From an uncultured Gammaproteobacteria bacterium (GTDB taxonomy: Bacteria > Patescibacteriota > Microgenomatia > UBA12405), in the NCBI GenBank assembly GCA_964538765.1, contig CAZIHS010000002.1, positions 1,327-65,326 on the forward strand: a DNA stretch of 64,000 nucleotides, in the 5' to 3' direction. The notes below the pieces were generated by a model. That model saw only the letters and a program-made list of their open reading frames with translations, ran no database searches and was not told the origin of the DNA. Of the stretch, positions 15,722 to 63,678 are shown one piece after another. The number at the start of each line of letters is the position of its first letter. Position 1 is the first letter of the stretch. The position numbers and the translations under genes are program-made.

Positions 15722-16450
15722 ATGACACCAAAGTTGAAAGAGCTTTCAGTCTTTTTTCCCTGTTATAACGAAGAGGCGAACCTGGAAACTACTTTTAACA
15801 AAACCCTTCCGATAATTAAAGAAATTGCCGATAAATGGGAAGTAATTATTGTTGATGATGGCTCAAAAGACAACACCGGGGCCGTGGCCCTAGGCATTCA
15901 AAATAAATATCCCGAAAACGTTAGAATTATCACCCACCGCCCCAACCGCGGCTATGGAGCAGCAATCAAAAGCGGCCTTTTTAACTCGCGCTATGAATGG
16001 GTGGTGTTTACCGACTCTGATGGTCAATTTGACTTTAACGACGTTCGGGAGCTTATCCAAAAACAGAAAATTACAAATGCCGACATGGTAATCGGCTACT
16101 ACCTAAACCGCCGCGTTCCATTATACCGGAAGATTGGGTCAAAGCTGTGGCAATTTGCCGTCGGGATATTATTTGGCCTTTGGGTTCGCGACATCGACTG
16201 CGCCTTCAAATTGATTAATCAAAAAGTAATTAAAAAGTTACCGCCCCTGACTTCCGAGCGGGGACCCTTCATTACCAGCGAATTTCTGATCTATTCCCAA
16301 AAAAATGGCTTTTCAATCGCTGAAGTCGGAGTCCACCACTTTTCCCGCCAGGCCGGTGAGGCCACCGGCGCCAAGCTAAACGTCATTCTCTCTGGCTTTA
16401 AAGATCTCTTCCGACTTTGGTTTAAGGTCACATTTTCGGCCAAAAAATGA
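15722..16450 (+). CDS. GT2 polyprenyl-phosphate sugar synthase (DPM1/GtrB/ArnC-like)
   Basis: 'LSVFFPCYNEE', 'VIIVDDGSKDNT' and 'FTDSDGQFD' match the GT-A DxD/DAD architecture of Pol-P-hexose synthases. Confidence 0.8.
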   Translation: MTPKLKELSVFFPCYNEEANLETTFNKTLPIIKEIADKWEVIIVDDGSKDNTGAVALGIQNKYPENVRIITHRPNRGYGAAIKSGLFNSRYEWVVFTDSDGQFDFNDVRELIQKQKITNADMVIGYYLNRRVPLYRKIGSKLWQFAVGILFGLWVRDIDCAFKLINQKVIKKLPPLTSERGPFITSEFLIYSQKNGFSIAEVGVHHFSRQAGEATGAKLNVILSGFKDLFRLWFKVTFSAKK

Positions 16451-16460
16451 CACATCAATT

Positions 16461-17897
16461 ATGACCCAACCAATATCAAAAAGGTTGGTTTTACTAACCC
16501 TCATCATTGTCCTCGCCGCCTTTTTCCGTCTATACCGCATCAATGATTATATGGAATACTTAGGTGATCAGGGCCGGGACCTTATTATCATCAGGGAGTT
16601 TCTAGTCAACAAAAACCTGTTTTTTATCGGTCCTCAAACCAGTGTCGGGAACATGTATTTAGGACCATGGTTTTATTATTTTATCGCTCCAAGCCTTCTG
16701 TTTGCCGGCTACAATCCGGTTGGACCGGCAATATTCACTGGACTTTTAGGAGTATTAACAATATATCTTGTCTACCATGTTGCCTCCCGGTGGTTTAGTG
16801 TACCCGTCGGGCTTGCCGCCTCCCTTTTGATGTCAATTTCGCCGGTAGTCATTAAATATTCAACTTCTTCCTGGAATCCCAACGTTATGCCCCTTTTTTC
16901 CTTGTTGTTCATCTATTTCCTATGCCAAAAACGCTATATTCCGGCCACAATTTCCTTTATTATGATAATTAATTCCCACTATTTAGGTATATTACTTTTA
17001 GCGCCGGCAATATTTATCCTCATCCACAACTATAAAACCAGCCAGCAAAAAATCCCGATATTTATCCGCCATTTAATTTTCCCGGCTATATTATTCATTA
17101 TCAGTCTTTCACCCCTGATACTATTTGATCTGAAACATCAGGGGCAAAATATCGGTGCGGTCCTACGTTTTTTTAGCCAGCGTGAAACCACCGTTAATTT
17201 AAAACCTTACAAGGCTTTTCCTTTAATTTTTCCTCTCACCAGACAAGTATTCGAAAGGTTGCTGTTGGGTAAAAACCACTTGGTGTCTCTAGTTGCCACA
17301 TTATTATTTCTCTTGGGCTCACTCATGGCCTTTATCCGTTTTCGCTTTTCCAACTATTATCTGAACCTAATATATCTTTGGATATTCACTGGCATTGTCG
17401 GTTTGGCGCTATACAAACAGCATATTTATGATCACTATTTTGGCTTTATTTTTCCGGCCATATTTATCCTAGCTGCCTACCTAATTGTCCAGGTTAAGTA
17501 CTCAACCGTCCGCTATATAATTATTGCCGTTTTAGTCATCCTTTCGTTAGTGGAAAATCCATTTCGCTGGCCGCCACCAAAACAACTCCAAACCAGTTCC
17601 CAAATCACCGACTCAATCATTGCTGACAGTCAGAACCTCCCCTTCAACTTTGCTCTTCTCGCCAAGCAAAACTATGACCCGCCCTACCGCTATCTATTTA
17701 TCCTTAAGGGCGCCCCGTTATATTCCATTGACCAAAAACTTACAAAGCAGCTATATGTTGTCTGTGAACCTTTTCAAACCGACTGCAATCCCATCAATAA
17801 TCCCGAGTGGTCTGTGGCGGCTTTTGGCTGGGGTAAGATCGCCAAGTCGTGGCAAATCAACGGCATCAGTATATACAAAATTGTCCACAATATTTAG
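16461..17897 (+). CDS. Polytopic membrane glycosyltransferase, GT-C superfamily (subfamily A)
   Basis: 478 aa with about 12 TM helices. The N-terminal loop 'RINDYMEYLGDQGRDL...IGPQTSVGNMYLGPWFYYF' is shared with 17849 and 19371. Confidence 0.6.
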   Translation: MTQPISKRLVLLTLIIVLAAFFRLYRINDYMEYLGDQGRDLIIIREFLVNKNLFFIGPQTSVGNMYLGPWFYYFIAPSLLFAGYNPVGPAIFTGLLGVLTIYLVYHVASRWFSVPVGLAASLLMSISPVVIKYSTSSWNPNVMPLFSLLFIYFLCQKRYIPATISFIMIINSHYLGILLLAPAIFILIHNYKTSQQKIPIFIRHLIFPAILFIISLSPLILFDLKHQGQNIGAVLRFFSQRETTVNLKPYKAFPLIFPLTRQVFERLLLGKNHLVSLVATLLFLLGSLMAFIRFRFSNYYLNLIYLWIFTGIVGLALYKQHIYDHYFGFIFPAIFILAAYLIVQVKYSTVRYIIIAVLVILSLVENPFRWPPPKQLQTSSQITDSIIADSQNLPFNFALLAKQNYDPPYRYLFILKGAPLYSIDQKLTKQLYVVCEPFQTDCNPINNPEWSVAAFGWGKIAKSWQINGISIYKIVHNI

Positions 17898-19369
17898 AAA
17901 TAGTGAAGAATATTAGATTATCAACCGTATTAATTGTCATCTTCTGGCTCGCAGGGTTGTTTCTTCGAACCTACCGCCAAAAAGACCTTCTTGGATTTTA
18001 CTACGACCAAGGGTGCGATGCCCAAATAGCCTCAGACATTATCCACCTTCGTAATTTACCCGCCATCGGTCCAACCACCGGAATCCCCGGTTTGCATCTT
18101 GGACCGTTTTGGTTTTATCTTTTGGCACCCTTTTATTTTATAGGTTCTGGCAGTCCGGTAATTGCCAGTTACTTCATTTCGTTTATCGACAGTTTATCAA
18201 TCATCCTGTTATACCTAATTCTCAAAAAATATCACTCGGCCTCTGCCGGTTTGGTTGGCGCCGCAACATACAGCTTCAGCCGGTACCTAATAAGCTCTTC
18301 CCGGTGGTTTTCCAATCCTTCTCCGCTACCGTTTTTTACTCTTCTGGCAATATATCTTACTCTTGAAGTATTTTCACAAAAAAAATTTAATCGGCTGCCT
18401 CTGCTTTCTTTAGTTCTAGGATTATCTCTTCAACTCGAGGCCGCCAGCGCCATTTTTTTCTACCTTTCTCTCGGAGCATATACAGTTTTGCAGCTCTCAA
18501 CAGCCAAAGCTATTCCGCTTAAATATTACCGGAATGCTTTTGGTGTATTTATTGTTCTTCTCATCCCCCAATTTGCTTTCGAGCTAAAAAATAATTACCC
18601 CACCCTAAAGACATTGATGTTGTTTACAACCGGTCGGGTTGCCTCTTCGGGTACACCTTCGTGGTCGATCCCAAACATTAATTTTATCCAAAACAGGCTT
18701 CTAACTTATTACCAGTATTTATTCAGCAAGTTTGATGTTTCTGTATCAATATATTCCACCATCGCTTTAATGGTGTTTCTTTTTGGTTTGGTTCTATTGC
18801 TAAAGCGGCAATCTGATCAGCCGCTGGTCAGGCTAACTTGCGTCTGGCTGATAGTTCCGCTGACTCTCCTGCTGTTTTTTAGTGGCAATTATGGTCGGCT
18901 ATATGACTATTATTTGACTGGTTTTTACCCAAGCTTCGTTATCATTGTCTCTTTAATTTTGTTCTTGCCAAGCAAAATAATATCAAAGACAGTCTTAATC
19001 TTGCTGTTTTTTGTATATTTTATTTTTGGAAACGAAGTTCACCTCTATCATTATCTGACAGATGGAATTGACGGGCCCACCAATGTCGTGTTTGGCAATC
19101 AGTTTGCCGCGGTTTCCAAACTTTGTTCCATGCCGGAAGACTATCGGCTTGACATCTATGTTCCGCCGATTACGCCATTATCCTATGACTATCTTTTCGA
19201 CTGGCTTTCCTCCACAGGTTGCCGACGGCCATCTTCATCAGGTCCTCTCCTCCTACTCTACGAAACCGACCTGGTAAACCCCGGCAGTTTGCAAAAATGG
19301 CTTTCTAAACAGCCAAACCGCCTGCCGGTTGCAAAATTTGGCGGAGTCACTATTGAAAAAGTCAAATAA
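17849..19369 (+). CDS. Polytopic membrane glycosyltransferase, GT-C superfamily (subfamily A paralog)
   Basis: 'YYDQGCDAQIASDIIHL...IGPTTGIPGLHLGPFWFYLL' is paralogous to 16461. Both 17849 and the non-overlapping 17903 are GTG start candidates. Confidence 0.6.
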   Translation: MANQRHQYIQNCPQYLEIVKNIRLSTVLIVIFWLAGLFLRTYRQKDLLGFYYDQGCDAQIASDIIHLRNLPAIGPTTGIPGLHLGPFWFYLLAPFYFIGSGSPVIASYFISFIDSLSIILLYLILKKYHSASAGLVGAATYSFSRYLISSSRWFSNPSPLPFFTLLAIYLTLEVFSQKKFNRLPLLSLVLGLSLQLEAASAIFFYLSLGAYTVLQLSTAKAIPLKYYRNAFGVFIVLLIPQFAFELKNNYPTLKTLMLFTTGRVASSGTPSWSIPNINFIQNRLLTYYQYLFSKFDVSVSIYSTIALMVFLFGLVLLLKRQSDQPLVRLTCVWLIVPLTLLLFFSGNYGRLYDYYLTGFYPSFVIIVSLILFLPSKIISKTVLILLFFVYFIFGNEVHLYHYLTDGIDGPTNVVFGNQFAAVSKLCSMPEDYRLDIYVPPITPLSYDYLFDWLSSTGCRRPSSSGPLLLLYETDLVNPGSLQKWLSKQPNRLPVAKFGGVTIEKVK

Positions 19370-19370
19370 A

Positions 19371-20867
19371 CTATTCCGTGTACCCAAGAAGAGGATCGAG
19401 AAAATTTGCAGAATCATTGCAATATCCGTCTGGCACCACTCCTTCAAATTTTGGATAAATCAGCCCGAATCTTCCAAAACCAACCTCGGTTTCAGAGCTG
19501 ATTGTTGGGGGGATGGCTATATTATAAATCGGCACAAATTTACTGGGTTTAACCAAATTTATACCGTTGTACCAAAAAAGGTATCTAAACCCAACTCCGA
19601 CCCCCGGCCCGGCAATATAATTTACCGCCACGCATGGATAATTGTTCATATCAATATTAGTTTTTATAGTCTCAACCAATTTCCTTCTATAAAAATAAGA
19701 TTCACTGGAGTCAGATTTGGTCACCAGCCATAAACCGTTGAAGGTCAAATATAATATGGACATTAATATTAGCAAACGGTTTCCAAATTTGCTTATAGTT
19801 CCAACTAAAAAATACATAATAACCACCAGCGTATTGCTAAAATAGTATTCCGAAACTATCCTCTTTGAAAAAAATTGAGCCACCATAATCATTACCAGCC
19901 ACAGCCCAAACCACCAAGCGTAGCCTCGTTTACTGTAAGTAAATAAACCTACGATTACCATTAAAACTATTGCCATCCCAAAGATAAAATGGTCAATTTG
20001 ATCAAAGCCAAACAATAACCGGTGTTGCCACTCGTCTCCCGAAGCATCCAAAATTTTCTGAAGTTTTTGAAGACCTCCGGGGCCGCCCTGGTCAACCTGA
20101 CTGGCTGAAATAATTTGTCTGCTTTGGCTAAAACCGTGTTTTATTTCAAACAGCCAAAACGGACTGCTAACCGCCAAAAATAATATTATCGATAAGATGA
20201 AATATCTACAAATTATCTTGGTTATAAATTCCTTTAAAAAATTTTTAACCTCCAAGTAAAAGCTATTTTGCCCAACTCGAAACCTGGAGTATTCACCAAA
20301 AATGTATGCCAAAATCGGAATCGGAAGAATCGGCAACAAGGCAATGTGTATGTGCCAGGTGAAACCAATTAAAACACCATAGCCCAAAAGCCATCTGATA
20401 TCGCCTGCCGACAACCGGTATATAACGTATAATAACCAAACAGACCACAGGATGGTAGGCATGGTTGGTACCAGCCATCTGTCAAAGTAAACCGCTCCAA
20501 ACGAAAACGAATAAATAAAAGCCGCAATCAAACCCGCCCTAAACCCGGAAATCTTTGAAAACACATAGTAAATGCTGATAATCGTTAACCCGCCAAAAAT
20601 CAAACTTACCCCCATCATCGAGAGGGGATTCATCTTCCCAAGAAAATAAAATATCGATGTCAGATAGTACCAAAATGGGCCGATAAACACCCCCTCTACG
20701 CTTGTAATTTGTCCTGCCAGCCTTAGGTGGTGATTAACAAGAATATCCTTGGCAATCCATGAATATAAATCCTGATCGTGAGCGAAAGATAAACCTTTCT
20801 CAAAATTATATAACCTGAAAAGCAATCCCAAAAAAAGCAATGTCACCACAGCGAATCTAGCTTTCAC
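19371..20867 (-). CDS. Polytopic membrane glycosyltransferase, GT-C superfamily (subfamily A paralog, opposite strand)
   Basis: 'FAHDQDLYSWIAKDIL...AGQITSVEGVFIGPFWYYL' is the same subfamily as 16461 and 17849. Confidence 0.6.
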   Translation of the reverse strand: MKARFAVVTLLFLGLLFRLYNFEKGLSFAHDQDLYSWIAKDILVNHHLRLAGQITSVEGVFIGPFWYYLTSIFYFLGKMNPLSMMGVSLIFGGLTIISIYYVFSKISGFRAGLIAAFIYSFSFGAVYFDRWLVPTMPTILWSVWLLYVIYRLSAGDIRWLLGYGVLIGFTWHIHIALLPILPIPILAYIFGEYSRFRVGQNSFYLEVKNFLKEFITKIICRYFILSIILFLAVSSPFWLFEIKHGFSQSRQIISASQVDQGGPGGLQKLQKILDASGDEWQHRLLFGFDQIDHFIFGMAIVLMVIVGLFTYSKRGYAWWFGLWLVMIMVAQFFSKRIVSEYYFSNTLVVIMYFLVGTISKFGNRLLILMSILYLTFNGLWLVTKSDSSESYFYRRKLVETIKTNIDMNNYPCVAVNYIAGPGVGVGFRYLFWYNGINLVKPSKFVPIYNIAIPPTISSETEVGFGRFGLIYPKFEGVVPDGYCNDSANFLDPLLGYTE

Positions 20868-20899: not shown

Positions 20900-21685
20900 A
20901 TGAAACCCAAAATTTCGGTAATTATTCCCTGCTATAACGAAGAAAACAACATAAAGCAGGGAATCCTTGGTCAGGTATACCAGTTTTTATCAACCCAAAC
21001 ATTTGATTGGGAAGTCTTGATATGCAATGACGATTCAACCGATAACAGCCCAAAATTAATAAAGGAGCAAATTTCACATTTTCCCGGTTTTCGCCTGATT
21101 AATCTTCCCCACGGAGGTAAACCTTCCGCTCTTTTTGGTGGAATTCAACAGGCCAAGTATCCCTGGGTTCTCCTGACCGATATGGATCAGTCAACTCCTA
21201 TCAAAGAAATCCATAAGTTATTGCCATATCTCGACTCTCATGACATAGTTATCGGTTCCAGAGGTAATCTTCGCCAGGGCCACAGTATAATCCGAAAAAT
21301 AGGTTCTTATGTATTTACCAATATCCGAATGTTGATAATGCTTCACCATATTGTTGACACACAGTGTGGTTTTAAGGCTGTCAAAACCACGGTTGCCAAA
21401 AAAATCTTTCCTCTTTTGGCTGCGGTCAAAACAGCCAGTCAAACAGTTGGTTGGAGGGTTTCATCATATGATGTCGAGATGTTATACATCGCCGACAAAT
21501 GGAAGCTCAAAATTAAAGAGGTTTTGGTCAATTGGAAAAATGAGGATTTATCAACCACAAAAGGGGATTTCATTACCCGTTATCGGAAGGAATCCGTACA
21601 AATGGCCAAAGAGGTTGTTCGCGTCAAATTTAGCGACCTTAGGGGATTATACCCTGACAAATTTGCATCCGATGACTCTTCCTAA
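20900..21685 (+). CDS. GT2 polyprenyl-phosphate sugar synthase-like glycosyltransferase
   Basis: 'ISVIIPCYNEENNI', 'CNDDSTDNS' and 'LLTDMDQS' are motifs of DPM1-like GT2 enzymes. Confidence 0.75.
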   Translation: MKPKISVIIPCYNEENNIKQGILGQVYQFLSTQTFDWEVLICNDDSTDNSPKLIKEQISHFPGFRLINLPHGGKPSALFGGIQQAKYPWVLLTDMDQSTPIKEIHKLLPYLDSHDIVIGSRGNLRQGHSIIRKIGSYVFTNIRMLIMLHHIVDTQCGFKAVKTTVAKKIFPLLAAVKTASQTVGWRVSSYDVEMLYIADKWKLKIKEVLVNWKNEDLSTTKGDFITRYRKESVQMAKEVVRVKFSDLRGLYPDKFASDDSS

Positions 21686-23222
21686 TATCAAAGCCACTCT
21701 TCCTCTCGTCGCTTTCTTGTTTGTGGACATATTATATTTGGCTACCCGCGTATTATCTCTCGATGTTTTTCCCATATTTGGCGACGAGGCCATTTATGTC
21801 CGCTGGTCCCAGATAATAAAATCTGTCGAGACATTGCGCTTTATCCCTCTCACCGATGGAAAACAACCGCTATTTATGTGGGTCACCGTGCTTTTCTTCA
21901 AGCTAACGCCCGACCCCCTTGTCGCCGGCCGGCTGGTATCAGTAATTGCCGGTTTAGGAAACATATTCTGCCTTTGTTTAATTGTAAACTTAATTAACCC
22001 TAAAAATCTAAAAAATATTCCAAATAATCCACTAAAACTTGTTGTCATGTGCCAAAGCCGCTTCAGTCCTGCTGCTCTAATTGTCTCAGCTTTTTATCTT
22101 CTATCACCCTACACTCTCTTTTTTGACCGCCTGGCGTTAGCCGATAACCTTCTTACCTTTTGGGGGCTTCTTTCGTTTGTTCTGGCCGTTCTTCTTTCAC
22201 TATATCCACGATTTGATTTGTCAATTCTTCTCGGCGTAGTCCTAGGTCTTGCCTATCTTACCAAGTCACCGGCCCTATTTTTTGTGATTCTCTCATTTAT
22301 TACCTATATTTTTTTAAACCGGCCCACCTTAAAAAATTACATATATCCCTTAATTTCCGTTTCAATCGCCTACTCAATATACAACCTCCTGCGGCTCGGG
22401 CCCCAATTTCACCAAATTGCGATTCGTAACCGTGACTATATTTGGCCTTTTTCAAGTATTGTTAAACACCCTCTAGATCCATTATTTCCCCATCTGACCG
22501 ATGCAGTTTCGCTCTACCGTTCATATCTTGGTCTCCCTGTTTTGGTCACATTTATTGTTTTTCTTATATTAACTATTCGCCGGTCTCTTGCTTCAAGGCT
22601 ATATGTTCCACTGATACTTTGGTGGGGTTTCCCATTATTTGTTAATCTTGCCTTTAGCCGTGTTTTCACCGCCCGTTACATTTTATACGCCACACCCTAC
22701 TTATTCATTCTTCTGGCTTTGATGACCCAACGCCTCGCCCTTAATCTTAAGTCAAACATTATCTACCTCGTCCCGGTTATTTCGCTTATTTACACCTTTC
22801 CATTATTTTTCCAGATCCTCACCAAACCACTTTTGGCTATTTCCCGTTTACCCGGAAACGAAAGTGGCTATCTTACCGATTGGACCTCGGGCTGGGGAGT
22901 TAAACCAGTCGCCCAGTATTTAATTAACCGTGCTAAAACATATAATGTTATTGTCGGAACCGAGGGTTATTTCGGCACTCTACCCGATGGCCTTCAAGTA
23001 TATACCAATAACGTTCCAAAACTGACGGTTTTTGGTGTTGGCCTGGAAATTGAAACTGTTCCAGATAAGCTGGTTGACGCCCGAAATCATGAAGACGACG
23101 TATACCTCCTCATAAACCGCTCACGTCACCACCTCAAGCCCAGTGCCATTTCTCTCCTCGATCTTGTCTACTCGTATCCCAAGCCAAACAATGACAGCTT
23201 AGACCTTTATCGGCTACGATGA
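21672..23222 (+). CDS. ArnT/PMT-like GT-C membrane glycosyltransferase
   Basis: 'LSLDVFPIFGDEAIYVRWSQ' is the ArnT/PMT DE-loop motif. The start was set to the ATG at 21672; the ORF-track start at 21351 is an out-of-frame overlap with the previous gene. Confidence 0.65.
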   Translation: MTLPNIKATLPLVAFLFVDILYLATRVLSLDVFPIFGDEAIYVRWSQIIKSVETLRFIPLTDGKQPLFMWVTVLFFKLTPDPLVAGRLVSVIAGLGNIFCLCLIVNLINPKNLKNIPNNPLKLVVMCQSRFSPAALIVSAFYLLSPYTLFFDRLALADNLLTFWGLLSFVLAVLLSLYPRFDLSILLGVVLGLAYLTKSPALFFVILSFITYIFLNRPTLKNYIYPLISVSIAYSIYNLLRLGPQFHQIAIRNRDYIWPFSSIVKHPLDPLFPHLTDAVSLYRSYLGLPVLVTFIVFLILTIRRSLASRLYVPLILWWGFPLFVNLAFSRVFTARYILYATPYLFILLALMTQRLALNLKSNIIYLVPVISLIYTFPLFFQILTKPLLAISRLPGNESGYLTDWTSGWGVKPVAQYLINRAKTYNVIVGTEGYFGTLPDGLQVYTNNVPKLTVFGVGLEIETVPDKLVDARNHEDDVYLLINRSRHHLKPSAISLLDLVYSYPKPNNDSLDLYRLR

Positions 23223-24976
23223 AAATAGCTCAAGCAATAACCCGAAGTTTAATAAAACACCGGGTTTTGATGATATATTTAATCCTTTTTCTTGTCACCC
23301 TTCCCGCCTTTTTCTTTCTATTAAAACCTGGGGAGTATTGGAATATGCACGATGATATGCAGTTAATCCGTCAACTGGAAATGGAAAAGTGTTTTCAGGA
23401 CGGTCAGTTTCCGTGTCGCTGGTCTCCTGACCTTGGGTATGGATACGGCTATCCTCTATTCAATTTTTACCCACCCCTTCCATACTATGTCGGGCAGGTT
23501 TTTAGGCTATCCGGCCAAAGCTTTGTCACCACCGTCAAATTAACCGCCATTGCTCAAATTATTCTATCGTCGCTGGTGATGTTTGTCTTAATTACGGCGA
23601 TTTTTGGCTCCACCGCCGGCCTAATCGCTTCAGTTTTCTACACCTACGCTCCCTACCATTTAGTAAACATCTACGTCCGGGGGGCCATGAACGAAGCCTG
23701 GGCAGGAGTATTTTTTCCATTAATATTCCTTTTTATCCACCGTCTTGTAACCTCGCCAAAACTGTCCAACTCACTTTTGCTCGCCCTCTCTTTTTCACTC
23801 CTTTTACAATCCCACAATCCTATGGCTCTGATTTTTCTACCGCCAGCTTTTGCCTGGTTTCTTCTCTGTCTTTTTCTCTCCCATTCCCGCCCAAAAAACG
23901 ATTTACGAAATACGGTATTTCATTTCCTTTTTGCCCTGGTTTTTTCCCTGTCGCTTTCAGCCTATTTTACTTTGCCGGTGATCATTGAAAGTTCTTTGGT
24001 TCAAATTGAGTCAATGTTTCAAAACTATTATCATTTCACAGTTCATTTTGTCAGTATTTACCAGCTATTTTTTAGCAGTTTTTGGGGTGACGGACCTTCG
24101 GTTTGGGGACCAAACGATGGCATGTCTTTTTCTCTGGGATATCTTCACTGGATATTACCAATAATAATATTATTATTATCAGTTTATGTTTTACTTAAAA
24201 AAAAGCGATACCAAAAACAGTTTGTAATTTTTACGTTTTTCCTTGTCATGGGCGCCGTCAGTACGTTTCTTACCCACCAGCGTTCTGTTTTTATTTGGCA
24301 ACTGATTACTCCTCTTCAAAAAATACAATTTCCATGGCGCTTTTTGTCTCTTTCTGCATTTTTTCTTTCACTTTCCACCGGCTATCTCTCTGTTCTTCTT
24401 AAACAAAATTCACTACTAAACAAATATAGGTTATTCATTGTTGCCCTGATCCTTGTCATTCTTATTTTCATTAGCCTTCCCCACCTTACCCCGGTTACAC
24501 ATGGTCCGATCACCGACCGTCAAAAATTTTCTGGAATAGCCTGGACAAACCAAATCACCAGCGGTATCTATGACTATCTTCCAAAAACTGCCTCTAAAGC
24601 CGCCTCTTCACCGCCCTCTGGCCTTGTTGAAAATATTGATCCTGGCCAACAAAATTATTTAGTCGAAAATATAACCCGAGGTACCGATTGGATAAGTTTT
24701 AATATCTATTTACCCCAAAGCGGTCGAGTTACCCTGGCTCAGCTTTATTTCCCAGGTTTTAAGGCATATGTCAACGGCAAGCCGGAAAAAATTCAAAGCG
24801 AACCTTTGCTTGGTCGGATGGTTTTGGACCTGCCGGGAGGCTCAAATCAGGTGTTTATTCGTCTATTCAACACTCCAATTCGTACTATATCAAATCTAAT
24901 TTCACTGATATCATGGACAGCTCTTATCATTTATTTTTTATTTCGTTTATGGATGCGGCTTTATCACAGGAACTAA
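23219..24976 (+). CDS. YfhO-like GT-C-type polytopic membrane protein
   Basis: 585 aa, many TM helices. Conserved 'NMHDDMQLIRQLEMEKCFQDGQFPCRWSPDLGYGYGYPLFNFY' segment. It is a paralog of 43177. Confidence 0.5.
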   Translation: MKIAQAITRSLIKHRVLMIYLILFLVTLPAFFFLLKPGEYWNMHDDMQLIRQLEMEKCFQDGQFPCRWSPDLGYGYGYPLFNFYPPLPYYVGQVFRLSGQSFVTTVKLTAIAQIILSSLVMFVLITAIFGSTAGLIASVFYTYAPYHLVNIYVRGAMNEAWAGVFFPLIFLFIHRLVTSPKLSNSLLLALSFSLLLQSHNPMALIFLPPAFAWFLLCLFLSHSRPKNDLRNTVFHFLFALVFSLSLSAYFTLPVIIESSLVQIESMFQNYYHFTVHFVSIYQLFFSSFWGDGPSVWGPNDGMSFSLGYLHWILPIIILLLSVYVLLKKKRYQKQFVIFTFFLVMGAVSTFLTHQRSVFIWQLITPLQKIQFPWRFLSLSAFFLSLSTGYLSVLLKQNSLLNKYRLFIVALILVILIFISLPHLTPVTHGPITDRQKFSGIAWTNQITSGIYDYLPKTASKAASSPPSGLVENIDPGQQNYLVENITRGTDWISFNIYLPQSGRVTLAQLYFPGFKAYVNGKPEKIQSEPLLGRMVLDLPGGSNQVFIRLFNTPIRTISNLISLISWTALIIYFLFRLWMRLYHRN

Positions 24977-26406
24977 AAGACACAACCACCAAAAACATTT
25001 TTTTACTCACTTTTCGTAATTTTGGTATTCAAGCCATTTCTACGATCGGATTTTTTATTCTTACCATTATTCTTGGGCCGGCCGAAGTCGGACTTTTCGC
25101 CGTAGTTGCCGAGGCTGTCGGAATACTGGGCTATTTCTCTGATTTAGGTTTAGCCTCGGCTCTGATTCAACAAAAGGAAGAGGTTAAGAAAGAAGAGCTG
25201 CAGACAACTTTTATTATTCAGCAGATATTGGTGGCGGTTGGGATTATTCTTGCATTCTTTCTCTATCGGCGCTATTCAACCTCTAAAGGTTATGGTTATA
25301 AAGAGGAGTGGATATTTTACTCGCTTTGTTTCGCGTTTTTTGCCGCTTCTCTCAAAACAATTCCTTCTGTACTTCTTGAAAGAAAACTAAACTTTAAAGT
25401 AATTTCCTCAGTTGACATTGCTGAAAACGTTGTTTTCTACCTGGTCGCTGTCATTTTTGCCCTCCTTGGTTTCGGCGCTATTTCTTACGCCTTCGCCTCT
25501 TTTTTAAGAAGTTTTCTCGGTTTAATAATGATTTATCGGCTTCAGCCGTGGCCTTTTGGAATATCCTTTGACCCAAAAAGCGCCAAAAAACTTTTTCGTT
25601 TTGGAATTCCTTTCCAGCTTAACTCATTTATCGCTGTTGCCAAAGACCGGCTTTCCAACCTTCTTGTTGCCGCTATTTTGGGTCGCGAGTCTTTTGGGCT
25701 ATTATCATGGGCTCAAAAGGGTCCCCGGGTGCCTCTTAGTTTTATGGACGCGGTTATGAGAGTAACCTTCCCCACCTTTTCACGCATTCAAAATCAAACC
25801 GACCTTCTCAAAAGATCCCTTCAAAAAAGTCTATTTTATATATCGTTTTTTATATTTCCTTCACTGGTAATGGTTTGCTTCATTGCTCCCGATATAATCC
25901 AGATAATTCCAAAATACAATAAATGGTTTGCCGCTATTGTTCCAGTCTATTTCTATTCTATGAGTTATGCTATCGCCGCCGTCACCACCCCCATCACTAA
26001 TGCTTTTAACGCTGTCGGCAAAATTACCCTCACCACCAGGTTTATGATTATGTGGACAATTTTAACCTGGCTTTTATACCCTTGGTTAAGTTACAGGTTT
26101 TCATATATTGGCACCTCCATGGCCGTCTTAATCGTTGGCTGCAGTTCGTTTTTCGTTTGGCTCTCGGCCTATAAAGAGTTCAATGTCAACGTTTTAAAAT
26201 CGATCCTTCACCCAACAATAGGTTCGTTTATTATGTTATTGTCACTAATTTTAATCAGTTTTAGTGTAGATAATAACTATTTGGCCCTGGTTCTAAAACT
26301 AATTACTGGAACTTCGGCTTATTTGTTGTACCAGTTAACTTTTTCCCGGCGACAAATCACTTGGTTTATAAACCAAATACCATGGCTAAATTTTATAAAA
26401 CGTTAA
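24949..26406 (+). CDS. Wzx-like oligosaccharide flippase (MOP/polysaccharide-biosynthesis family)
   Basis: About 12-14 TM helices. The N-terminus 'KNIFLLTFRNFGIQAISTIGFFILTIILGPAEVGLF' is typical of Wzx proteins. Confidence 0.65.
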   Translation: MDAALSQELKDTTTKNIFLLTFRNFGIQAISTIGFFILTIILGPAEVGLFAVVAEAVGILGYFSDLGLASALIQQKEEVKKEELQTTFIIQQILVAVGIILAFFLYRRYSTSKGYGYKEEWIFYSLCFAFFAASLKTIPSVLLERKLNFKVISSVDIAENVVFYLVAVIFALLGFGAISYAFASFLRSFLGLIMIYRLQPWPFGISFDPKSAKKLFRFGIPFQLNSFIAVAKDRLSNLLVAAILGRESFGLLSWAQKGPRVPLSFMDAVMRVTFPTFSRIQNQTDLLKRSLQKSLFYISFFIFPSLVMVCFIAPDIIQIIPKYNKWFAAIVPVYFYSMSYAIAAVTTPITNAFNAVGKITLTTRFMIMWTILTWLLYPWLSYRFSYIGTSMAVLIVGCSSFFVWLSAYKEFNVNVLKSILHPTIGSFIMLLSLILISFSVDNNYLALVLKLITGTSAYLLYQLTFSRRQITWFINQIPWLNFIKR

Positions 26407-30656: not shown

Positions 30657-30657
30657 G

Positions 30658-52394: not shown

Positions 52395-52398
52395 ACTT

Positions 52399-53448: not shown

Positions 53449-54981
53449 ATGAGCAAAACAAAACCCACAATTTCCATTTCCTATCCTCCACTTTCAAATC
53501 AAAAAGGCCAGCCTTTTCTATCCCAAAATCGGCAGTTTCAATGGACCAACACTGGAAATGTAATTTACCCCGTTATTCCCGCCTACGGCGCCTCACTGTT
53601 AAAACAATCCGGCTACCAGGTGTTTTGGGACGATGCAATCTCAGAAAAAATTTCCTACTCCGATTGGCTGTCCCGTCTTAAAGACCGTAAACCAGAAGTA
53701 ATTTTTTTTGAAGCCAAAACTCCCACCATCAAAACACATTGGAAAATAATAAATGAAATAAAGGATCTAAACTTGACATCATGGAAACCCGTCATTGTGT
53801 TAATGGGAGATCACGTTACCGCTCTTCCGGCCGAATCCTTAAAACAATCAAAAGTTGATTTTGTCATAACCGGAGGAGATTACGATTTTATGATGCACAA
53901 CCTGGTTTCACATCTCTTCCTTTCCCAAAAACTTGAACCGGGTTTTTACTATAAAAGTAAAAGTCAAAACGGCAAGCACAAGATCGTCAATACCGGCCCT
54001 TTTGCCCTCAAACATCACCAACTTGACAGTCTTCCGTTTATCGACCGGAAACTGACCCGATGGGAATTATACGCCTACGACAATACAAACTATAAATACA
54101 CGCCAGGAACATATTTAATGTCGGGGCGGGATTGCTGGTGGGGAAAGTGTACTTTTTGCTCATGGACCACCACCCACCCGGCAGGGACATTCCGCTTTTT
54201 CTCCCCAAAAAGACTTCTGGATGAAATTGACAAAATATCCGCCGAATACGGAGTCAAAGAAATTTTCGATGATGCCGGAACACTTCCGATAGGTCCATGG
54301 CTTTCTCAATTCTGCCAGGGACTCATAAGCCGGGGTCTGAACAAAAAACTACGCTATGGATGCAACATGCGTTTTTCGGCGTTAAACCAATCACAATATT
54401 ACCAAATGGGCCAGGCTGGCTTCCGGTTTATTCTCTATGGTCTTGAGTCAAATAACCAAAGTACATTAGACAAAATCAAAAAAAACACCAAAGTAGAAGA
54501 GGCAAGAAAAACATTAATAATGGCAAAAAAGGCCAATTTAGAGCCGCACCTGACTATTATGATTGGCTACCCCTGGGAAACCATAAATGACGCCACCAAC
54601 ACTTTAAACGAGGCTCGCCGGCTATTTCTTGATGGTTTGGCCGACACCATGCAAGCCACCCGGATAATTCCTTATCCCGGCACGCCGCTATTCGAACAAT
54701 GCCGAAAAAACGGTTGGCTTCTTACCGAAAACTGGGATGATTACGATATGCGCCAGCCAGTAATGAAGTCACCCATCAGTCACCTGGATCAAGAAAAGCT
54801 CATCCAGGATTTATTCAAAGGGATACTAACCCCAAAGTTTATTTATCGAAAAATATCAACCATCAGGAATCTAGACGACATAGTTTTCCTTTCCCGCTAC
54901 GCCATCAAATACCTTAAAAAGTTATCAGACTTCAGCATTAACAATGCCAAATCTCAAATCAAAACTCCAAAACTTCAATAA
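53449..54981 (+). CDS. B12-binding-domain radical SAM enzyme (class-B-like)
   Basis: N-terminal Rossmann-like B12-binding region ('VIVLMGDHVTALP...DFVITGGDYDF') followed by the cysteine triad 'CWWGKCTFC', which has CX4CX2C spacing. Confidence 0.7.
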   Translation: MSKTKPTISISYPPLSNQKGQPFLSQNRQFQWTNTGNVIYPVIPAYGASLLKQSGYQVFWDDAISEKISYSDWLSRLKDRKPEVIFFEAKTPTIKTHWKIINEIKDLNLTSWKPVIVLMGDHVTALPAESLKQSKVDFVITGGDYDFMMHNLVSHLFLSQKLEPGFYYKSKSQNGKHKIVNTGPFALKHHQLDSLPFIDRKLTRWELYAYDNTNYKYTPGTYLMSGRDCWWGKCTFCSWTTTHPAGTFRFFSPKRLLDEIDKISAEYGVKEIFDDAGTLPIGPWLSQFCQGLISRGLNKKLRYGCNMRFSALNQSQYYQMGQAGFRFILYGLESNNQSTLDKIKKNTKVEEARKTLIMAKKANLEPHLTIMIGYPWETINDATNTLNEARRLFLDGLADTMQATRIIPYPGTPLFEQCRKNGWLLTENWDDYDMRQPVMKSPISHLDQEKLIQDLFKGILTPKFIYRKISTIRNLDDIVFLSRYAIKYLKKLSDFSINNAKSQIKTPKLQ

Positions 54982-55615
54982 CTACCGATATGGCTACCAA
55001 AACACTGCCATAAACAACCGTCTTGCTATCATAAAAGACCTTATCGATCCAAACGGTTACCTTCTTGATTTAGGTTGCGGCCGCGGTCACTTCCTAAAAT
55101 ACCTTGGACCCCAATATCGCTCGTTAGGCTATGACATTTCGACAACATCCATCAAACATTGCCTTTCTAAAAAAATAAATGCCAAGGTTGTTAACCTTGA
55201 AGAATCTTTTCCCGACAGCGCTAACACCTTTGATACCATCGTAGCAGGAGAAATTATTGAACACATTTTTGATACAGATAGTTTTCTCTCAGAAATTAAA
55301 AGAGTTCTAAAACCAAACGGTTCATTAATTCTATCTACCCCAAACCTGGCCTCTTTAGGCCGCCGACTACTTCTTATGATTGGCCGTAACCCATTGATTG
55401 AAGATAGTCTTGGTCCTCAAAATGCCGGCCACGTCCGATATTTCACCTTTCCACTCTTAAAACAGCTTCTAACCCGTCATGGTTTTGAAATTGAAATACA
55501 CAAAACCGACCAGATCAACTTTGATAACCAAGGCCGGCACTTTTCTACCTTCCTTTCTAATCTTTTTCCAAAATTAGGAGCCTCAATTATTCTAAAATGC
55601 AAAAACACAAAGTAA
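54944..55615 (+). CDS. Class I SAM-dependent methyltransferase
   Basis: 'LLDLGCGRGHF' motif I and 'LKPNGSLILSTPN'. Architecture is like the gene at 11065. Confidence 0.75.
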   Translation: MPNLKSKLQNFNNYRYGYQNTAINNRLAIIKDLIDPNGYLLDLGCGRGHFLKYLGPQYRSLGYDISTTSIKHCLSKKINAKVVNLEESFPDSANTFDTIVAGEIIEHIFDTDSFLSEIKRVLKPNGSLILSTPNLASLGRRLLLMIGRNPLIEDSLGPQNAGHVRYFTFPLLKQLLTRHGFEIEIHKTDQINFDNQGRHFSTFLSNLFPKLGASIILKCKNTK

Positions 55616-60822: not shown

Positions 60823-61972
60823 ACTACTTTTTATTTTTAACCAGCTTCTATTTCCCTGTTTAATGAGCGGCGGTGATGTTAAAGGTCACCAAGTCTACAC
60901 GCTGGTATGCCAATCAAAAATATTCGACCCGTCAGTGGTCACCCCCTCATCCAGCCAAAATCTCTTTCCCCAAAACCCAAAAAATAACGTTAAGGTAATC
61001 GGCAATCCTGTCGGCAAACCATATTTAGTTAACCGTTTCTGGGTTACCTTGTATTACATACTTCGTGCTTTCCACACCATCCCCAAAATTATTACCAGAA
61101 ATTTTGATTCCATCTACACCACCGGCGATTTCTTTTGCAACACCTTCCCGGCCTATATCTATAAAATTACCCATCCAAAGTGCCGTTGGAATGCCTGCGT
61201 TTTCCACTTAAATCCAAAGCCAAGCAACAGGCAAAATACCTATTTTAATAGCCTGTTTTCCTACATTTTTCAAAAAGTAGGCATATTCTTTATTAATTCA
61301 AAAGCCGACAATGTTTTTCTTCTAAACCACCAAATCCGCCACCAGTTGGTTATTCAAAATTTTCGTCCAAATATGGTAGTTTCGGGGGCAGGTATCGATT
61401 CAAGCCACATATTAGCAAACACCCCTAAAATAACCTCTCCCCAGCCCCATTCCTTGCTTTTTCTGGGTCGGATCTGCCAAACCAAAGGAGCTCTAGACTT
61501 GCCCCTTATCTTAAGCAAAATTAAAAATATATATCCGGATACCCACCTAAACATGGTCGGCACTCCAGACATGTCAATATTAAATAAACTTAAAGACTCA
61601 TTTAATTCACTCGGCCTGAATAGCAACTACACCCTCCACAACTATGTAGCCGACAAAACTAAATACCGGTTAATAAAAGAATCAGAAGTGTGTATTTTCC
61701 CTTCATATGAGGAAGGCTGGAACATCTCGCTATTTGAATGCTTGTTTTTAAAAAGATTTTCCCTCGTTTACAAACTTAATTTTTACCGCCCGATTTTTAA
61801 AACGAATTTAATCCAAGTCCCTCTCGGAAACAAAAATCAATTTTCCAAAACTGTTGTCGATTATTTTATCAACCCTTCGTCTTTTGCTAAAAACATTTCT
61901 GCCTGCCACCGCATTTCACGTCAATACCAATGGCGCAACGTCTATAACAAAGAACTCCCTTTTCTTTTCTAG
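60803..61972 (+). CDS. GT4-like (GT-B fold) glycosyltransferase
   Basis: C-terminal 'LLFLGRICQTKG...CIFPSYEEGWNISLFECLF' resembles the GT4 EX7E region. The N-terminal domain is divergent. Confidence 0.5.
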   Translation: MEKAKPKLLFIFNQLLFPCLMSGGDVKGHQVYTLVCQSKIFDPSVVTPSSSQNLFPQNPKNNVKVIGNPVGKPYLVNRFWVTLYYILRAFHTIPKIITRNFDSIYTTGDFFCNTFPAYIYKITHPKCRWNACVFHLNPKPSNRQNTYFNSLFSYIFQKVGIFFINSKADNVFLLNHQIRHQLVIQNFRPNMVVSGAGIDSSHILANTPKITSPQPHSLLFLGRICQTKGALDLPLILSKIKNIYPDTHLNMVGTPDMSILNKLKDSFNSLGLNSNYTLHNYVADKTKYRLIKESEVCIFPSYEEGWNISLFECLFLKRFSLVYKLNFYRPIFKTNLIQVPLGNKNQFSKTVVDYFINPSSFAKNISACHRISRQYQWRNVYNKELPFLF

Positions 61973-63678
61973 CTTCCCCCAACCTGTTTACTAATTTCAA
62001 CCATTGCTCCCAATGCTGACTGGTTTTTTGGATCCAATTCTAGCGATTTTTTAAACGACCTTATTGCCTCATCTCTTTGGCCAAGCCTTGACAAAACCAC
62101 TCCATAAACAAACCAAGACTGGGAACTGTTCGGCGTTTTTTGAACTAAAGTCACCACATGTTTTACCGCCTGCTCGGCATTTTTTTCAATGAGATCAATC
62201 TGTACTAAACTCATATATGTTTGATAGAGATCAGGATTGAAACTTATTGCGGTTTCATAGCTTTGCCTGGCCAAATCGTATCGGCCCATTTTAAAAAATA
62301 TATTGGCCCGGTTATGATACGCATCAGCATAGTTACTCTTAACCACCGTTGATTGGGTAAAACCCTTTACAGCACTTTCTAAATCATTAAGTTTGTCATA
62401 GTCATCGCCTATATTATTCCACGCATTATGACTATTCGGAGACACCTGTACCGTATTCACCCAAAGCTTATGGTTTGTTTGCCAATCGATGTTTCTCAAA
62501 AATATTCTGTATCCATAAAACCCGCAAACAACAATCAGCGCCCCCAACGCCAAACGCGCACTTCGTTTCTCCAACGCCTCAAATATGATTCCAACCAGCA
62601 TTGCCGCACCCAAAGAACCCAAAAACATGTATCTCTCGGCTACTAACCAGCTAACTTTTAACGGGGTCATTGAGGGAGCCGCCGCCAAAAATATAAATAC
62701 CAGTGCAAAAAACATCCTTTTATTCTTAAAAAGAAAATATCCCGCCGCTGACAAATATGTAATCAAAATAGACCAGTTCAACCAAGAAGGGATAACAAAC
62801 AGAGTGTGATATAAAGTTAAATCAACCGGAAAAAATATTAACTGGAGATATTTAGAAACAGATAAAGGATATTGGAAAAAAGGGCTATAAAGCATATCTC
62901 CAAGGCCGCTGACACCACCGTTGACTGCCTGGATTCTAAATTTAATTAGAGGATACATGATCAAAGAAAACAAAAAAACCATCAAAAGCGAAACCAGAGC
63001 AACCCTAGCAAAACTAAAATTCTTACGTATTCTAACCCCGAATAAAAATATATACGCCAAACCTATCAAAACCGCTGAACCAAATCTTGTTTTTTCCGCT
63101 AAAAAATTAATTGGAAATAAAAGTACAACCAACTTCAGGTATCGTTTATTTCCAGTCCTTTCATATAAAGATAGAAAAATCAGCTCTAATAATACAAAAA
63201 AGGCATTAAGTAAATATGGCTTACCGGACACCCAGCTAACCGCTTCAACATGAATTGGAAAAAAACTAAATACCAGAATTGTATAAAACACAGCTCTGCT
63301 GTCAGAAATTATACGTAACCAGATAAACGCTAAAGTTATTACCACCAAGTAAAGGCAAAGACTGAAAATATGGTAAGGAACTGGGTTTTGGTTTCCAAAA
63401 AACGAAGCGATAAACGCATTAATCGTTAAGGGCAAGCTAATCTGCTTTATGGCGCCAACCACGTTACCCGCTTCAGGGTTCTGACTGATAGTCGCGTAAT
63501 CATCTGAAACAAAATGACCCCAAAGACCGTTCACATAAACAACAGATACTAAAAAGTACAATACCATCAAAAACCTTAAATTCCGCCTGACAACTCCAAT
63601 AACATCAAAATTGACAACATTTTCAGTCACCAAAACACTTTTTTTTTCAATTCTTTTAAGCTTATTTTTCTTGGACAT
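61969..63678 (-). CDS. TMTC-like GT-C membrane glycosyltransferase with C-terminal TPR repeats
   Basis: N-terminal polytopic domain with a 'GLWGHFVSDDYATISQ' loop (DD variant of the DE motif) and about 10 TM helices. The last ~170 aa contain 3-4 TPR units ('AWNNIGDDY...AYHNRANIFFKMGRYDLARQSYETAISFNPD...'). Confidence 0.6.
   Translation of the reverse strand: MSKKNKLKRIEKKSVLVTENVVNFDVIGVVRRNLRFLMVLYFLVSVVYVNGLWGHFVSDDYATISQNPEAGNVVGAIKQISLPLTINAFIASFFGNQNPVPYHIFSLCLYLVVITLAFIWLRIISDSRAVFYTILVFSFFPIHVEAVSWVSGKPYLLNAFFVLLELIFLSLYERTGNKRYLKLVVLLFPINFLAEKTRFGSAVLIGLAYIFLFGVRIRKNFSFARVALVSLLMVFLFSLIMYPLIKFRIQAVNGGVSGLGDMLYSPFFQYPLSVSKYLQLIFFPVDLTLYHTLFVIPSWLNWSILITYLSAAGYFLFKNKRMFFALVFIFLAAAPSMTPLKVSWLVAERYMFLGSLGAAMLVGIIFEALEKRSARLALGALIVVCGFYGYRIFLRNIDWQTNHKLWVNTVQVSPNSHNAWNNIGDDYDKLNDLESAVKGFTQSTVVKSNYADAYHNRANIFFKMGRYDLARQSYETAISFNPDLYQTYMSLVQIDLIEKNAEQAVKHVVTLVQKTPNSSQSWFVYGVVLSRLGQRDEAIRSFKKSLELDPKNQSALGAMVEISKQVGGS

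Follow-up and report, generated by a model that had tools for sequence, protein, structure and literature searches.

A conserved, glycosyltransferase-dense island, probably for envelope-glycan biosynthesis, in a Shapirobacteria-type bacterium of the Microgenomates

Gene content and layout of the island

We analysed a 64,000-nt stretch of bacterial DNA (assembly GCA_964538765.1, contig CAZIHS010000002.1, positions 1,327 to 65,326; hereafter the window) and found that about 48 kb of it (positions 15722-63678) is an island of 38 genes that, according to the list of open reading frames (ORFs), cover essentially 100% of the block. Sixteen genes encode supported polytopic glycosyltransferases (GTs) of the GT-C fold and one more encodes a TPR-fused candidate; the remainder comprise 12 GT2s, three GT4s, one Wzx flippase, two radical S-adenosylmethionine (SAM) enzymes, one methyltransferase, one carbamoyltransferase and one small membrane protein. 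Glycosyltransferases make up 31-32 of the 38 genes, 16-17 of them GT-Cs, and the GT-C genes fill half of the block. An earlier reading made from the sequence alone (the sequence-only reading) had described a contiguous, GT-C-dominated glycosylation island with at least 14 GT-C enzymes. All of its coordinates coincide with real ORFs and the description holds, its count being too low because 26361 and 40245 were missed (genes are named here by the first coordinate of their ORF).

The packing of the block is very tight. Neighbouring genes overlap, by 1-74 nt, at 27 of the 37 junctions, the widest gap is 192 nt, and all but four of the 38 genes are on the plus strand. This close packing, with start codons overlapping stop codons, suggests that the block is operon-like and co-transcribed. 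The 17 established or candidate GT-C genes are as follows (loop 1 is the loop that follows the first transmembrane helix, TM1; L-numbers denote related loci described below).

16461..17897, plus strand: GT-C, family B; PMT_2 28.2 bits, above cut-off; loop-1 GDQGRD, kept in the L007 orthologue
17849..19369, plus strand: GT-C, family B; PMT_2 26.9 bits, PMT 26.0 bits; paralogue of 16461 and 19371
19371..20867, minus strand: GT-C, family B, by paralogy and PMT_2 (29.2 bits)
21672..23222, plus strand: GT-C, divergent PMT_2-like, 516 amino acids (aa), by hhalign; loop-1 GDEAIY; the L007 orthologue matches PMT_2
23219..24976, plus strand: GT-C, family C (PTPS_related); PF10131 33.4 bits; loop-1 HDD
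26382..28058, plus strand: GT-C-fold protein of a family without Pfam or NCBIfam entry, overlapping the end of wzx; called 26361 after its mechanical ORF start
28089..29528, plus strand: GT-C, family A, by paralogy and PMT_2 (43.8 bits); loop-1 VDE
35089..36279, plus strand: GT-C, GT87 (PimE/DUF2029) type; PF09594 31.5 bits, cut-off 25; loop-1 HPD
36860..38584, plus strand: GT-C, family A; no Pfam match; BLASTP to 46480 E 2e-19 over 522 aa; hhalign 100%; loop-1 NDE
38581..40248, minus strand: GT-C, family A; PMT_2 31.2 bits; loop-1 WDE; L001 orthologue 44% identical
40245..41501, minus strand: truncated family-A-like GT-C paralogue, 418 aa, without TM1 and the loop-1 DE motif
41547..43187, plus strand: GT-C, family A; PMT_2 18 bits, sub-threshold; BLASTP to 48113 E 4e-27; loop-1 SDE, kept in four orthologues
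43177..44886, plus strand: GT-C, family C; BLASTP to 23219 E 1e-92; PMT_2 23.5 and PTPS_related 17.8 bits, both sub-threshold; loop-1 QDD
44883..46490, plus strand: GT-C, family A; no Pfam match; BLASTP to 46480 E 6e-43; loop-1 WDE
46480..48132, plus strand: GT-C, family A; PMT 47 bits, PMT_2 30 bits; 2493 homologues
48113..49735, plus strand: GT-C, family A; PMT_2 45.8 bits; loop-1 PDE, kept in six orthologues
61969..63678, minus strand: polytopic domain (about 9-11 TM helices) with C-terminal TPR (TPR_1 75 bits, residues 420-565); candidate TMTC-like GT-C

The GT-C membrane proteins

Several lines of evidence were used to assign these proteins to the GT-C fold, namely Pfam gathering scores, NCBIfam, all-against-all BLASTP, hhalign comparison of profiles built from the window proteins and their orthologues in the fetched relative loci, hydropathy, and structure models. 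Nine of the genes reached a Pfam cut-off: PMT or PMT_2 in seven (16461, 17849, 19371, 28089, 38581, 46480 and 48113), GT87 in one and PTPS_related in one. Seven more were linked to recognised GT-C families by BLASTP or hhalign (91-100% probability). Pfam and NCBIfam gave no match for 21672, 26361, 36280, 36860, 40245, 44883 and the membrane half of 61969. Hydropathy analysis revealed 6-13 hydrophobic segments in each of the 17 candidates, all of which are thus polytopic.

BLASTP sorted most of the proteins into three families. Family A comprises 28089, 36860, 38581, 41547, 44883, 46480 and 48113, which are related over their full length at 22-34% identity; 36860 and 44883 are tied to 46480/48113 by full-length alignments with E values of 1e-19 to 1e-43. 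Family B consists of 16461, 17849 and 19371, and family C of 23219 and 43177 (32% identity, full-length). Compared with family A by hhalign, family B scored 98-99%, family C 95-96.6%, and 21672 97-98%, while the GT87 gene scored weakly (52-75%). Orthologue alignment and a public gene call of 516 aa indicate that 21672 is the true start of that gene, rather than that of the longer ORF from 21351. The DUF2029-like label that had been given to 35089 agrees with its PF09594 match, which is above cut-off and partial (profile positions 35-146 of 237). For PF02366 (PMT), 46480 (47 bits) and 17849 (26 bits) exceeded the cut-off, with weaker matches in 48113 and 38581.

An acidic loop-1 motif stands right after TM1 in 16 of the 17 candidates, taking the form DE in eight, DD in three, DQ in three, HD in 26361 and HPD in 35089. 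The point of comparison is the aligned catalytic Asp of ArnT, Pmt1 and EmbA (PMC7801869). The sequence-only reading had proposed to check whether the loop motifs are conserved in orthologues, and they are: W34-D35-E36 of 46480 is invariant in 27 orthologues, H43-D44 of 26361 in 41 homologues, and the motifs are conserved in orthologues of nine further genes (16461, 21672, 23219, 43177, 35089, 38581, 41547, 44883 and 48113). The HPD of 35089 is kept in its L008 and L009 orthologues, and orthologues of 44883 with 44-51% identity retain WDEISHGYNAYS. Its other proposed check, structure prediction followed by Foldseek, also came out in its favour. The two most doubtful Pfam-less membrane proteins were modelled, and both are GT-C folds and not transporters, with ALG12, ALG9, ALG3, ALG6 and STT3 among their best structural matches. 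The GT-C enzymes would use polyprenyl-phosphate sugar donors outside the membrane, for which the three ArnC/GtrB/DPMS-like GT2 genes of the island give indirect support.

Two narrower family labels did not survive. Of the PMT_2/ArnT-like label, the PMT_2 part is borne out by Pfam; membership of ArnT (GT83) was rejected at the sequence level, with no PDB ArnT match at E<=1 and a likeness confined to the fold. The YfhO-like label of 23219 and 43177 was likewise rejected, since neither matches PF09586 and both match PF10131 instead (33.4 and 17.8 bits, respectively).

The 26361 protein (558 aa) deserves separate treatment. In its model, about 13 TM helices precede an extracytoplasmic alpha/beta domain at the C-terminus, and Foldseek matched the model to DPY19, STT3, AglB, PglB and AftA with probability 1.0 and TM-scores of 0.45-0.54. 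Structural comparison with solved enzymes gave scores of 18.6 for Pmt4, 18.2 for STT3B, 18.2 for ALG12, 18.0 for AftA, 16.9 for Pmt2, 16.7 for AglB, 16.6 for PglB and 15.7 for ArnT. By sequence, hhalign matched the family to the profiles of 36860 and 48113 at 91-92%, and the family profile found no match among the sequences of solved structures. More than 550 close homologues exist, all unnamed, Pfam-less and from Shapirobacteria or Patescibacteria, and an exhaustive profile search collected 1461 sequence clusters at E<=1e-3. Judged from its model, 26361 represents a new sequence family with a GT-C fold. Assignment to the N-oligosaccharyltransferases (STT3/AglB/PglB, GT66) was rejected at the family level, as 26361 has neither a WWDYG motif nor an STT3 match.

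Many homologues of 26361 (such as P0261, P0269, P0277 and P0288) fall into a class of 900-1160 aa in which an N-terminal signal peptide and a soluble domain of about 430-590 aa, with NPVRGxEFW, TWLLRxD and ADQFSTDxYQxWG stretches, are added; this soluble domain has no Pfam match and no counterpart in the window. In P0294 (1639 aa), which comes from another lineage, Wzx, this secreted domain and a 26361-like domain are joined in one protein. Taking this fusion together with the overlap of 26361 and wzx in the island, 26361 would handle the flipped substrate, and it is the best candidate for the enzyme acting on the Wzx-flipped oligosaccharide by transfer, ligation or polymerisation.

Two further proteins are atypical. 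The 40245 family aligns with family A by hhalign at 96.5-97.4%, the alignment beginning near residue 67 of family A, which indicates a truncated paralogue that lacks TM1 and the first loop. Most of 13 homologues have YPPTEDQL at a site where the window copy has YPPTAYQL, and only 14 homologues were found, compared with thousands for the neighbouring genes. It may be a non-catalytic pseudo-enzyme, a partner or an accessory subunit. As for 61969, which had been called a TMTC/TPR-fused protein, the TPR repeats stand, as does a DD (residues 59-60) that follows the predicted TM1 at a distance of five residues, and an AERY at residues 347-350 precedes a late TM segment. In TMTC proteins, DD and ERxxY motifs have been described, the DD being aligned with the catalytic Asp of ArnT, Pmt1 and EmbA (PMC7801869). 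The rest of the label did not hold: PF08409 (DUF1736) was not found in 61969 even at E<=10, and SHKSYRP, KE(T/Q)xxT and DW were absent in a pattern search. Residues 1-420 had no family match and no PDB sequence match, and the membrane domain gave no significant hhalign match to any island family (best 16.6%).

Conservation, partner genes and borders

The relatives of 46480 place the island in the candidate phyla radiation (CPR). The best of them, at about 50-55% identity, are named Candidatus Shapirobacteria, with one from Woesebacteria and some from Patescibacteria, which agrees with the CPR-like host suggested from the sequence alone; several lie on contigs of 0.57-0.87 Mb. The 46480 protein itself is identical to one public NCBI protein. 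In a public lookup, nine of ten window proteins were found, all of them singletons at 90% identity, and the public gene calls agree with ours.

A profile scan of genome contigs returned five loci, and the same gene order was seen in five fetched contexts, L001 (GCA_028685145.1), L007, L008, L009 and L010, of which L007 and L008 overlap and sample one genome. There, at least 39.8 kb of the island lies on an 865-kb contig (at least 4.6% of it), and a more compact version occurs on the 470-kb contig of L002. Orthologues across assemblies share 44-66% protein identity in the same order, as against 22-34% for paralogues within the island, indicating that the duplications are old and that every copy has been maintained on its own, a pattern that non-redundant steps would produce. 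The 22-34% identity of the paralogues and the lack of any DNA repeat >32 nt within the island led us to reject a recent tandem duplication or a collapsed assembly. This and the synteny in independent assemblies also settle the question of mis-assembly that had been raised along with the sequence-only reading.

The GT-C set varies between relatives. In the four longest sampled relatives (L001, L002 and L007/L008), 17849, 19371, 28089 and 36860 have no match of at least 40% identity; 38581 and 40245 are matched in L001 (44% and 31% identity, respectively), and L007/L008 hold other additional genes. The island is thus a conserved scaffold with gains and losses of paralogues. The contigs of L002, L003 and L005 are titled 'uncultured Gammaproteobacteria bacterium' yet their island genes are clearly of the Shapirobacteria type, with unchanged synteny and 49-51% identity to 46480, and their record taxonomy is probably wrong.

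The genes that accompany the GT-Cs in the island are the following.

15722..16450, plus strand: soluble GT2, polyprenyl-phosphate-sugar synthase-like; PF00535 101 bits; ArnC E 3e-16, then GtrB and DPMS; no TM helix
20900..21685, plus strand: soluble GT2, polyprenyl-phosphate-sugar synthase-like; PF00535 80 bits; GtrB E 7e-11, then DPMS and ArnC
24913..26406, plus strand: Wzx-type (MOP) flippase; PF13440 152 bits, PF01943 92 bits; about 11-12 hydrophobic segments
29721..30656, plus strand: GT2 with one predicted C-terminal TM helix; PF00535 75 bits; best solved relatives GmaR (E 3e-21) and SunS
30658..31575, plus strand: GT2; PF00535 72 bits
31560..32366, plus strand: GT2, paralogue of 29721 and 49732 by BLASTP; PF00535 44 bits
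32293..33423, plus strand: GT4 (GT-B fold); PF00534 87 bits
33420..34304, plus strand: GT2; PF00535 80 bits
34301..35107, plus strand: GT2; PF00535 90 bits
36280..36879, plus strand: small membrane protein, 199 aa; no family match
49732..50517, plus strand: GT2, paralogue of 29721; PF00535 76 bits
50496..51590, plus strand: GT4; PF00534 76 bits
51591..52394, plus strand: soluble GT2, polyprenyl-phosphate-sugar synthase-like; PF00535 81 bits; DPMS E 1e-10, ArnC also matched
52387..53412, plus strand: GT2 with C-terminal TM segments by hydropathy; PF00535 54 bits; best solved relative GalT1
53449..54981, plus strand: radical SAM enzyme, presumed sugar tailoring; PF04055 46.5 bits; PF02310 25.3 bits, below the cut-off of 32.1
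54944..55615, plus strand: SAM-dependent methyltransferase; PF13489 80 bits
55597..56613, plus strand: GT2; PF00535 84 bits
56601..57608, plus strand: GT2; PF00535 100 bits
57653..59311, plus strand: carbamoyltransferase, NodU/CmcH type; PF16861 215 bits, PF02543 172 bits
59311..60822, plus strand: B12-binding radical SAM enzyme; PF04055 71 bits, PF02310 70 bits
60803..61972, plus strand: GT4-like (GT-B); PF13692 36 bits, PF00534 36 bits

Here too most of the earlier inventory was confirmed. Pfam matches were obtained for all of the three GT4s, the Wzx flippase and the sugar-tailoring enzymes, and the three GT2s singled out as polyprenyl-phosphate-sugar synthases (15722, 20900 and 51591) indeed have ArnC, GtrB and DPMS as their best solved relatives; the further GT2s number nine instead of about ten. 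BLASTP showed the three synthase-like proteins to be mutual paralogues. In hydropathy plots none of them has C-terminal TM helices of the GtrB, ArnC or archaeal DPMS kind, and presumably they are of the soluble DPM1/Ppm1-D2 type that depends on a membrane partner.

Among solved structures, the Listeria flagellin O-GlcNAc transferase GmaR and the S-glycosyltransferase SunS come closest to the GT2 group of 29721, 31560 and 49732, which hints that some cytoplasmic GT2s of this group may glycosylate proteins or peptides directly. There are two radical SAM enzymes, at least one of which (59311) is clearly cobalamin-binding, in a lineage expected to be minimal for cofactor biosynthesis, a combination suggesting that cobalamin is scavenged for glycan tailoring. 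Genes of similar size, 195 aa in L008 and 202 aa in L009, occupy the place of 36280 behind the GT87 gene. Of the two, the L008 gene alone resembles it in sequence (34% identity over 151 aa), and neither does under a stricter filter; it is possible that 36280 is a partner of the GT87 protein.

Upstream of the island, Pfam identified housekeeping and envelope genes at positions 1-15.6 kb.

1-15.6 kb: class II aminoacyl-tRNA synthetase fragment, SecA, response regulator, HIT protein, BipA, cyclophilin, peptide-chain release factor, LCP ligase, methyltransferase, FtsE/FtsX, M23 peptidase and DUF11 protein, including the three genes below
10058..11068, plus strand: LCP (LytR-CpsA-Psr) glycopolymer ligase; PF03816, 82 bits
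11065-11811: SAM methyltransferase, its start overlapped by the stop of the LCP ligase gene
15032..15637, minus strand: small secreted DUF11 protein at the left border, divergent from the island; PF01345, 47 bits

An LCP ligase and a sortase-anchored protein had been expected nearby, and both are there. The translation of the DUF11 protein carries a signal peptide and, at its C-terminus, VPETG, a hydrophobic segment and the basic tail RKLARGF, that is, a sortase-type sorting signal. The left border is kept in L010, where a divergent DUF11 gene (L010 1-553, minus strand) stands beside the first GT2, and the DUF11 protein is a candidate glycan acceptor or co-regulated surface protein. FtsE/FtsX and the M23 peptidase sit between the LCP/methyltransferase pair (10058-11811) and the island; by gene placement, wall-polymer attachment and the predicted control of cell-division hydrolases are tied to the neighbourhood of the island. 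On the right, a further minus-strand gene (63700-64000) runs past the end of the window, within a source contig of 69,119 bp, and the right border of the island is thus provisional.

The G+C content is about 40% across the whole window, with no compositional break, and no tRNA or Rfam match was found in the island. The borders carry neither an integrase gene nor a tRNA or repeats, and housekeeping genes stand upstream; a mobile or viral origin was therefore rejected. Although most genes are on the plus strand, all 2-kb windows have a negative GC skew (-0.04 to -0.32), and in the GT-C stretches the AT skew is negative too. The codon composition of hydrophobic proteins is the probable cause, but the GC skew extends to the housekeeping part.

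Proposed function and relation to known systems

We consider it probable, with some reserve, that this conserved, operon-like island serves a Shapirobacteria-type (Microgenomates/CPR) bacterium as a locus for envelope-glycan biosynthesis, and its most likely product is a large, complex surface glycan carried by an acceptor protein or wall polymer. The basis of this model is what was observed, that is, the gene content, the fold and family assignments, the conservation of motifs, the synteny, and the divergence of orthologues against that of paralogues. The donors, the order of the steps, the acceptor and the role of 26361 would then be as follows. The soluble GT2s and GT4s (29721-35107, 49732-53412, 55597-57608 and 60803) would assemble an oligosaccharide, linked to a polyprenyl carrier, on the cytoplasmic side of the membrane, and Wzx (24913) would flip the lipid-linked oligosaccharide to the outer face. 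In parallel, the GT2s 15722, 20900 and 51591 would charge polyprenyl phosphate with single sugars, like ArnC, GtrB and DPM1. Outside, the 16-17 GT-Cs, which belong to at least five sequence families, would use the translocated lipid-linked sugars, each adding a specific residue or linkage, and 26361, with its STT3/DPY19/PMT-like fold and its place directly after Wzx, would handle the flipped oligosaccharide. Methyl and carbamoyl groups would be added to the sugars by the radical SAM enzymes, the methyltransferase and the carbamoyltransferase, and the product would be placed on the cell wall, an LCP ligase being nearby, and/or on surface proteins. The 'serial assembly line' of the sequence-only reading may apply in this sense, whether the acceptor is a glycan or a protein.

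Several observations weigh against this model. Pfam detected in the window no priming phosphoglycosyl transferase of the WecA/MraY or WbaP type, no GtrA-type flippase and no nucleotide-sugar synthesis genes. When a family A profile of 27 orthologues was used to search the sequences of solved structures (E<=1), it found no Pmt, no ArnT and no other GT-C, and the specificity for donor and acceptor is thus unreadable from homology. One of the 16 GT-Cs, 40245, lacks the catalytic loop, and 61969 is a GT-C candidate only. Finally, the variation of the GT-C set between relatives would also fit a collection of parallel decorating enzymes.

It is conceivable, but in our judgement rather unlikely, that the island serves mainly protein O-glycosylation, with PMT-like GT-Cs glycosylating Ser/Thr of secreted proteins such as pilins, S-layer or sortase-anchored proteins, and with the paralogues divided among targets or among successive sugars, a reading that overlaps with the envelope-glycan model. 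The PF02366 matches in 46480, 17849, 48113 and 38581 point this way, as do the public naming of orthologues as 'glycosyltransferase family 39 protein', the sortase-type DUF11 surface protein as a conserved neighbour, and the closeness of 29721, 31560 and 49732 to the protein- or peptide-modifying GmaR and SunS. However, the PMT/PMT_2 models also span lipid and glycan modifiers, e.g., ArnT; a search of solved structures with the orthologue profile brought up neither Pmt nor ArnT; Pfam detects no MIR domain in the island genes; and 12 GT2s, three GT4s and Wzx, with an LCP ligase nearby, indicate lipid-carried assembly of an oligosaccharide or polymer. We regard as decidedly improbable a set of parallel Gtr-like three-component modules (a synthase GT2 with a GT-C), each of which would attach a single side-branch to a shared polymer and so vary the surface against phages or for host recognition. 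The position of 15722 directly upstream of 16461/17849/19371 and of 20900 before 21672/23219 would fit such modules, and the number of GT-C genes differs between relatives, but most paralogues have orthologues in conserved order, the duplications are ancient, and neither repeats nor phase-variation tracts nor mobile elements were found. Both protein O-glycosylation and Gtr-like decoration are compatible with the envelope-glycan model.

To an artefact, either a chimeric assembly or membrane proteins that are in fact transporters or other non-glycosyltransferases, we give practically no credence. Six membrane proteins without a Pfam or NCBIfam match could raise this suspicion, but both modelled orphans give GT-C folds and the others link to PMT_2 families by BLASTP or hhalign, while the synteny in other assemblies, the uniform composition, the lack of repeats and the agreement of the gene calls with public ones speak for an intact locus. 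A more specific form of the envelope-glycan model, which we hold to be doubtful, would make the island the bacterial counterpart of the N-glycan pathway of the endoplasmic reticulum (ER) lumen, with a Wzx-flipped oligosaccharide, a dozen or more GT-Cs fed by three polyprenyl-phosphate donors, and en bloc transfer, polymerisation or ligation by the 26361 family. If this ER-like reading were true, these ultra-small episymbionts would maintain, at high cost, a very large conserved glycan as a central element of their cell surface.

The enzyme kinds themselves are already known, and many of the genes are publicly annotated as 'phospholipid carrier-dependent glycosyltransferase'. In the searchable literature on CPR/Patescibacteria glycosyltransferases we found no description of such an island, of its density or of the 26361 family; one CPR paper mentions '20 glycosyltransferases' in general terms only (PMC5220378). 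What is new is that 16-17 GT-Cs are concentrated in 48 kb, that the block has been retained throughout a CPR lineage whose genomes measure <1 Mb, and that a Pfam-less GT-C family is coupled to Wzx.

CPR/Patescibacteria have genomes <1 Mb and lack most biosynthetic pathways, and a lineage with so tiny a genome keeps a block of about 40-48 kb that consists of nearly nothing but glycosyltransferases; the 48 kb found here probably amount to some 5% of the host genome. The conservation of the block across relatives at about 50% protein identity suggests that their lifestyle cannot do without a complex surface glycan; such a glycan could serve host attachment, envelope integrity or phage defence. 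The locus provides a defined gene set that can be traced in metatranscriptomes and proteomes, and the island is a compact natural set of diverged GT-C paralogues for work on structure and specificity. With 26361 it also offers a new GT-C family with a high-confidence model, physically coupled to Wzx.

Several known systems share features with the island. The likeness to TMTC1-4 concerns 61969 only, which has a polytopic N-terminus with DD after TM1, AER(Y) before a late TM segment and a C-terminal TPR (motifs of PMC7801869), but lacks PF08409, SHKSYRP, KE(T/Q)xxT and DW. Gtr-type systems (GtrA/GtrB/GtrC, CsbB-YfhO and GtlA-GtlB, acting on O-antigen and teichoic acids) likewise have GT2 synthase genes directly upstream of GT-C genes; in them the GT2 forms a polyprenyl-phosphate sugar, which the GT-C passes on to an extracellular polymer. 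In contrast to them, the island has no GtrA-like flippase, no YfhO (PF09586) and no GtrC-type match, its synthases end without the TM helices found at the C-termini of GtrB and ArnC, and it holds many GT-Cs rather than one per module. With actinobacterial and eukaryotic protein O-mannosylation (GT39 Pmt with Ppm1/DPM1) it shares PF02366 and PF13231 matches, the loop-1 D-E and the public GT39 annotation, but not a solved-Pmt profile match or a MIR domain, and it has at least seven diverged paralogues instead of one.

The same functional categories as in the ER N-glycan pathway (ALG, RFT1, DPM1/ALG5, ALG3/9/12/6/8/10, OST/STT3) co-occur in the island: cytoplasmic GT2s and GT4s, a MOP flippase, DPM1-like synthases, far-side GT-Cs, and an STT3/DPY19-like GT-C beside the flippase. 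Given that sequence membership of ALG or STT3, WWDYG and, in the window, a priming GlcNAc-1-P transferase are all missing, the likeness would be one of pathway logic only. Mycobacterial and corynebacterial arabinogalactan and lipomannan/lipoarabinomannan assembly (EmbA/B/C, AftA-D, MptA-C, PimE; Ppm1; Lcp1) is similar in that many GT-Cs extend a wall- or lipid-linked glycan outside with polyprenyl-phosphate monosaccharides, and the island also has a GT87 (PimE-type) gene, a GT2 synthase and an LCP ligase. Instead of Emb/Aft matches (no PF04602 or PF12250), it contains PMT_2, PTPS_related and GT87 proteins and a new family, it has Wzx and many GT2s in the same block, and its host is a CPR bacterium and not an actinobacterium. 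In the densest GT-C clustering known, that of the embCAB-aftA-aftB region, roughly five such genes lie together. Mycobacteria spread a similar number of GT-Cs over 4.4 Mb, whereas the island holds 16-17 in 48 kb of a genome <1 Mb.

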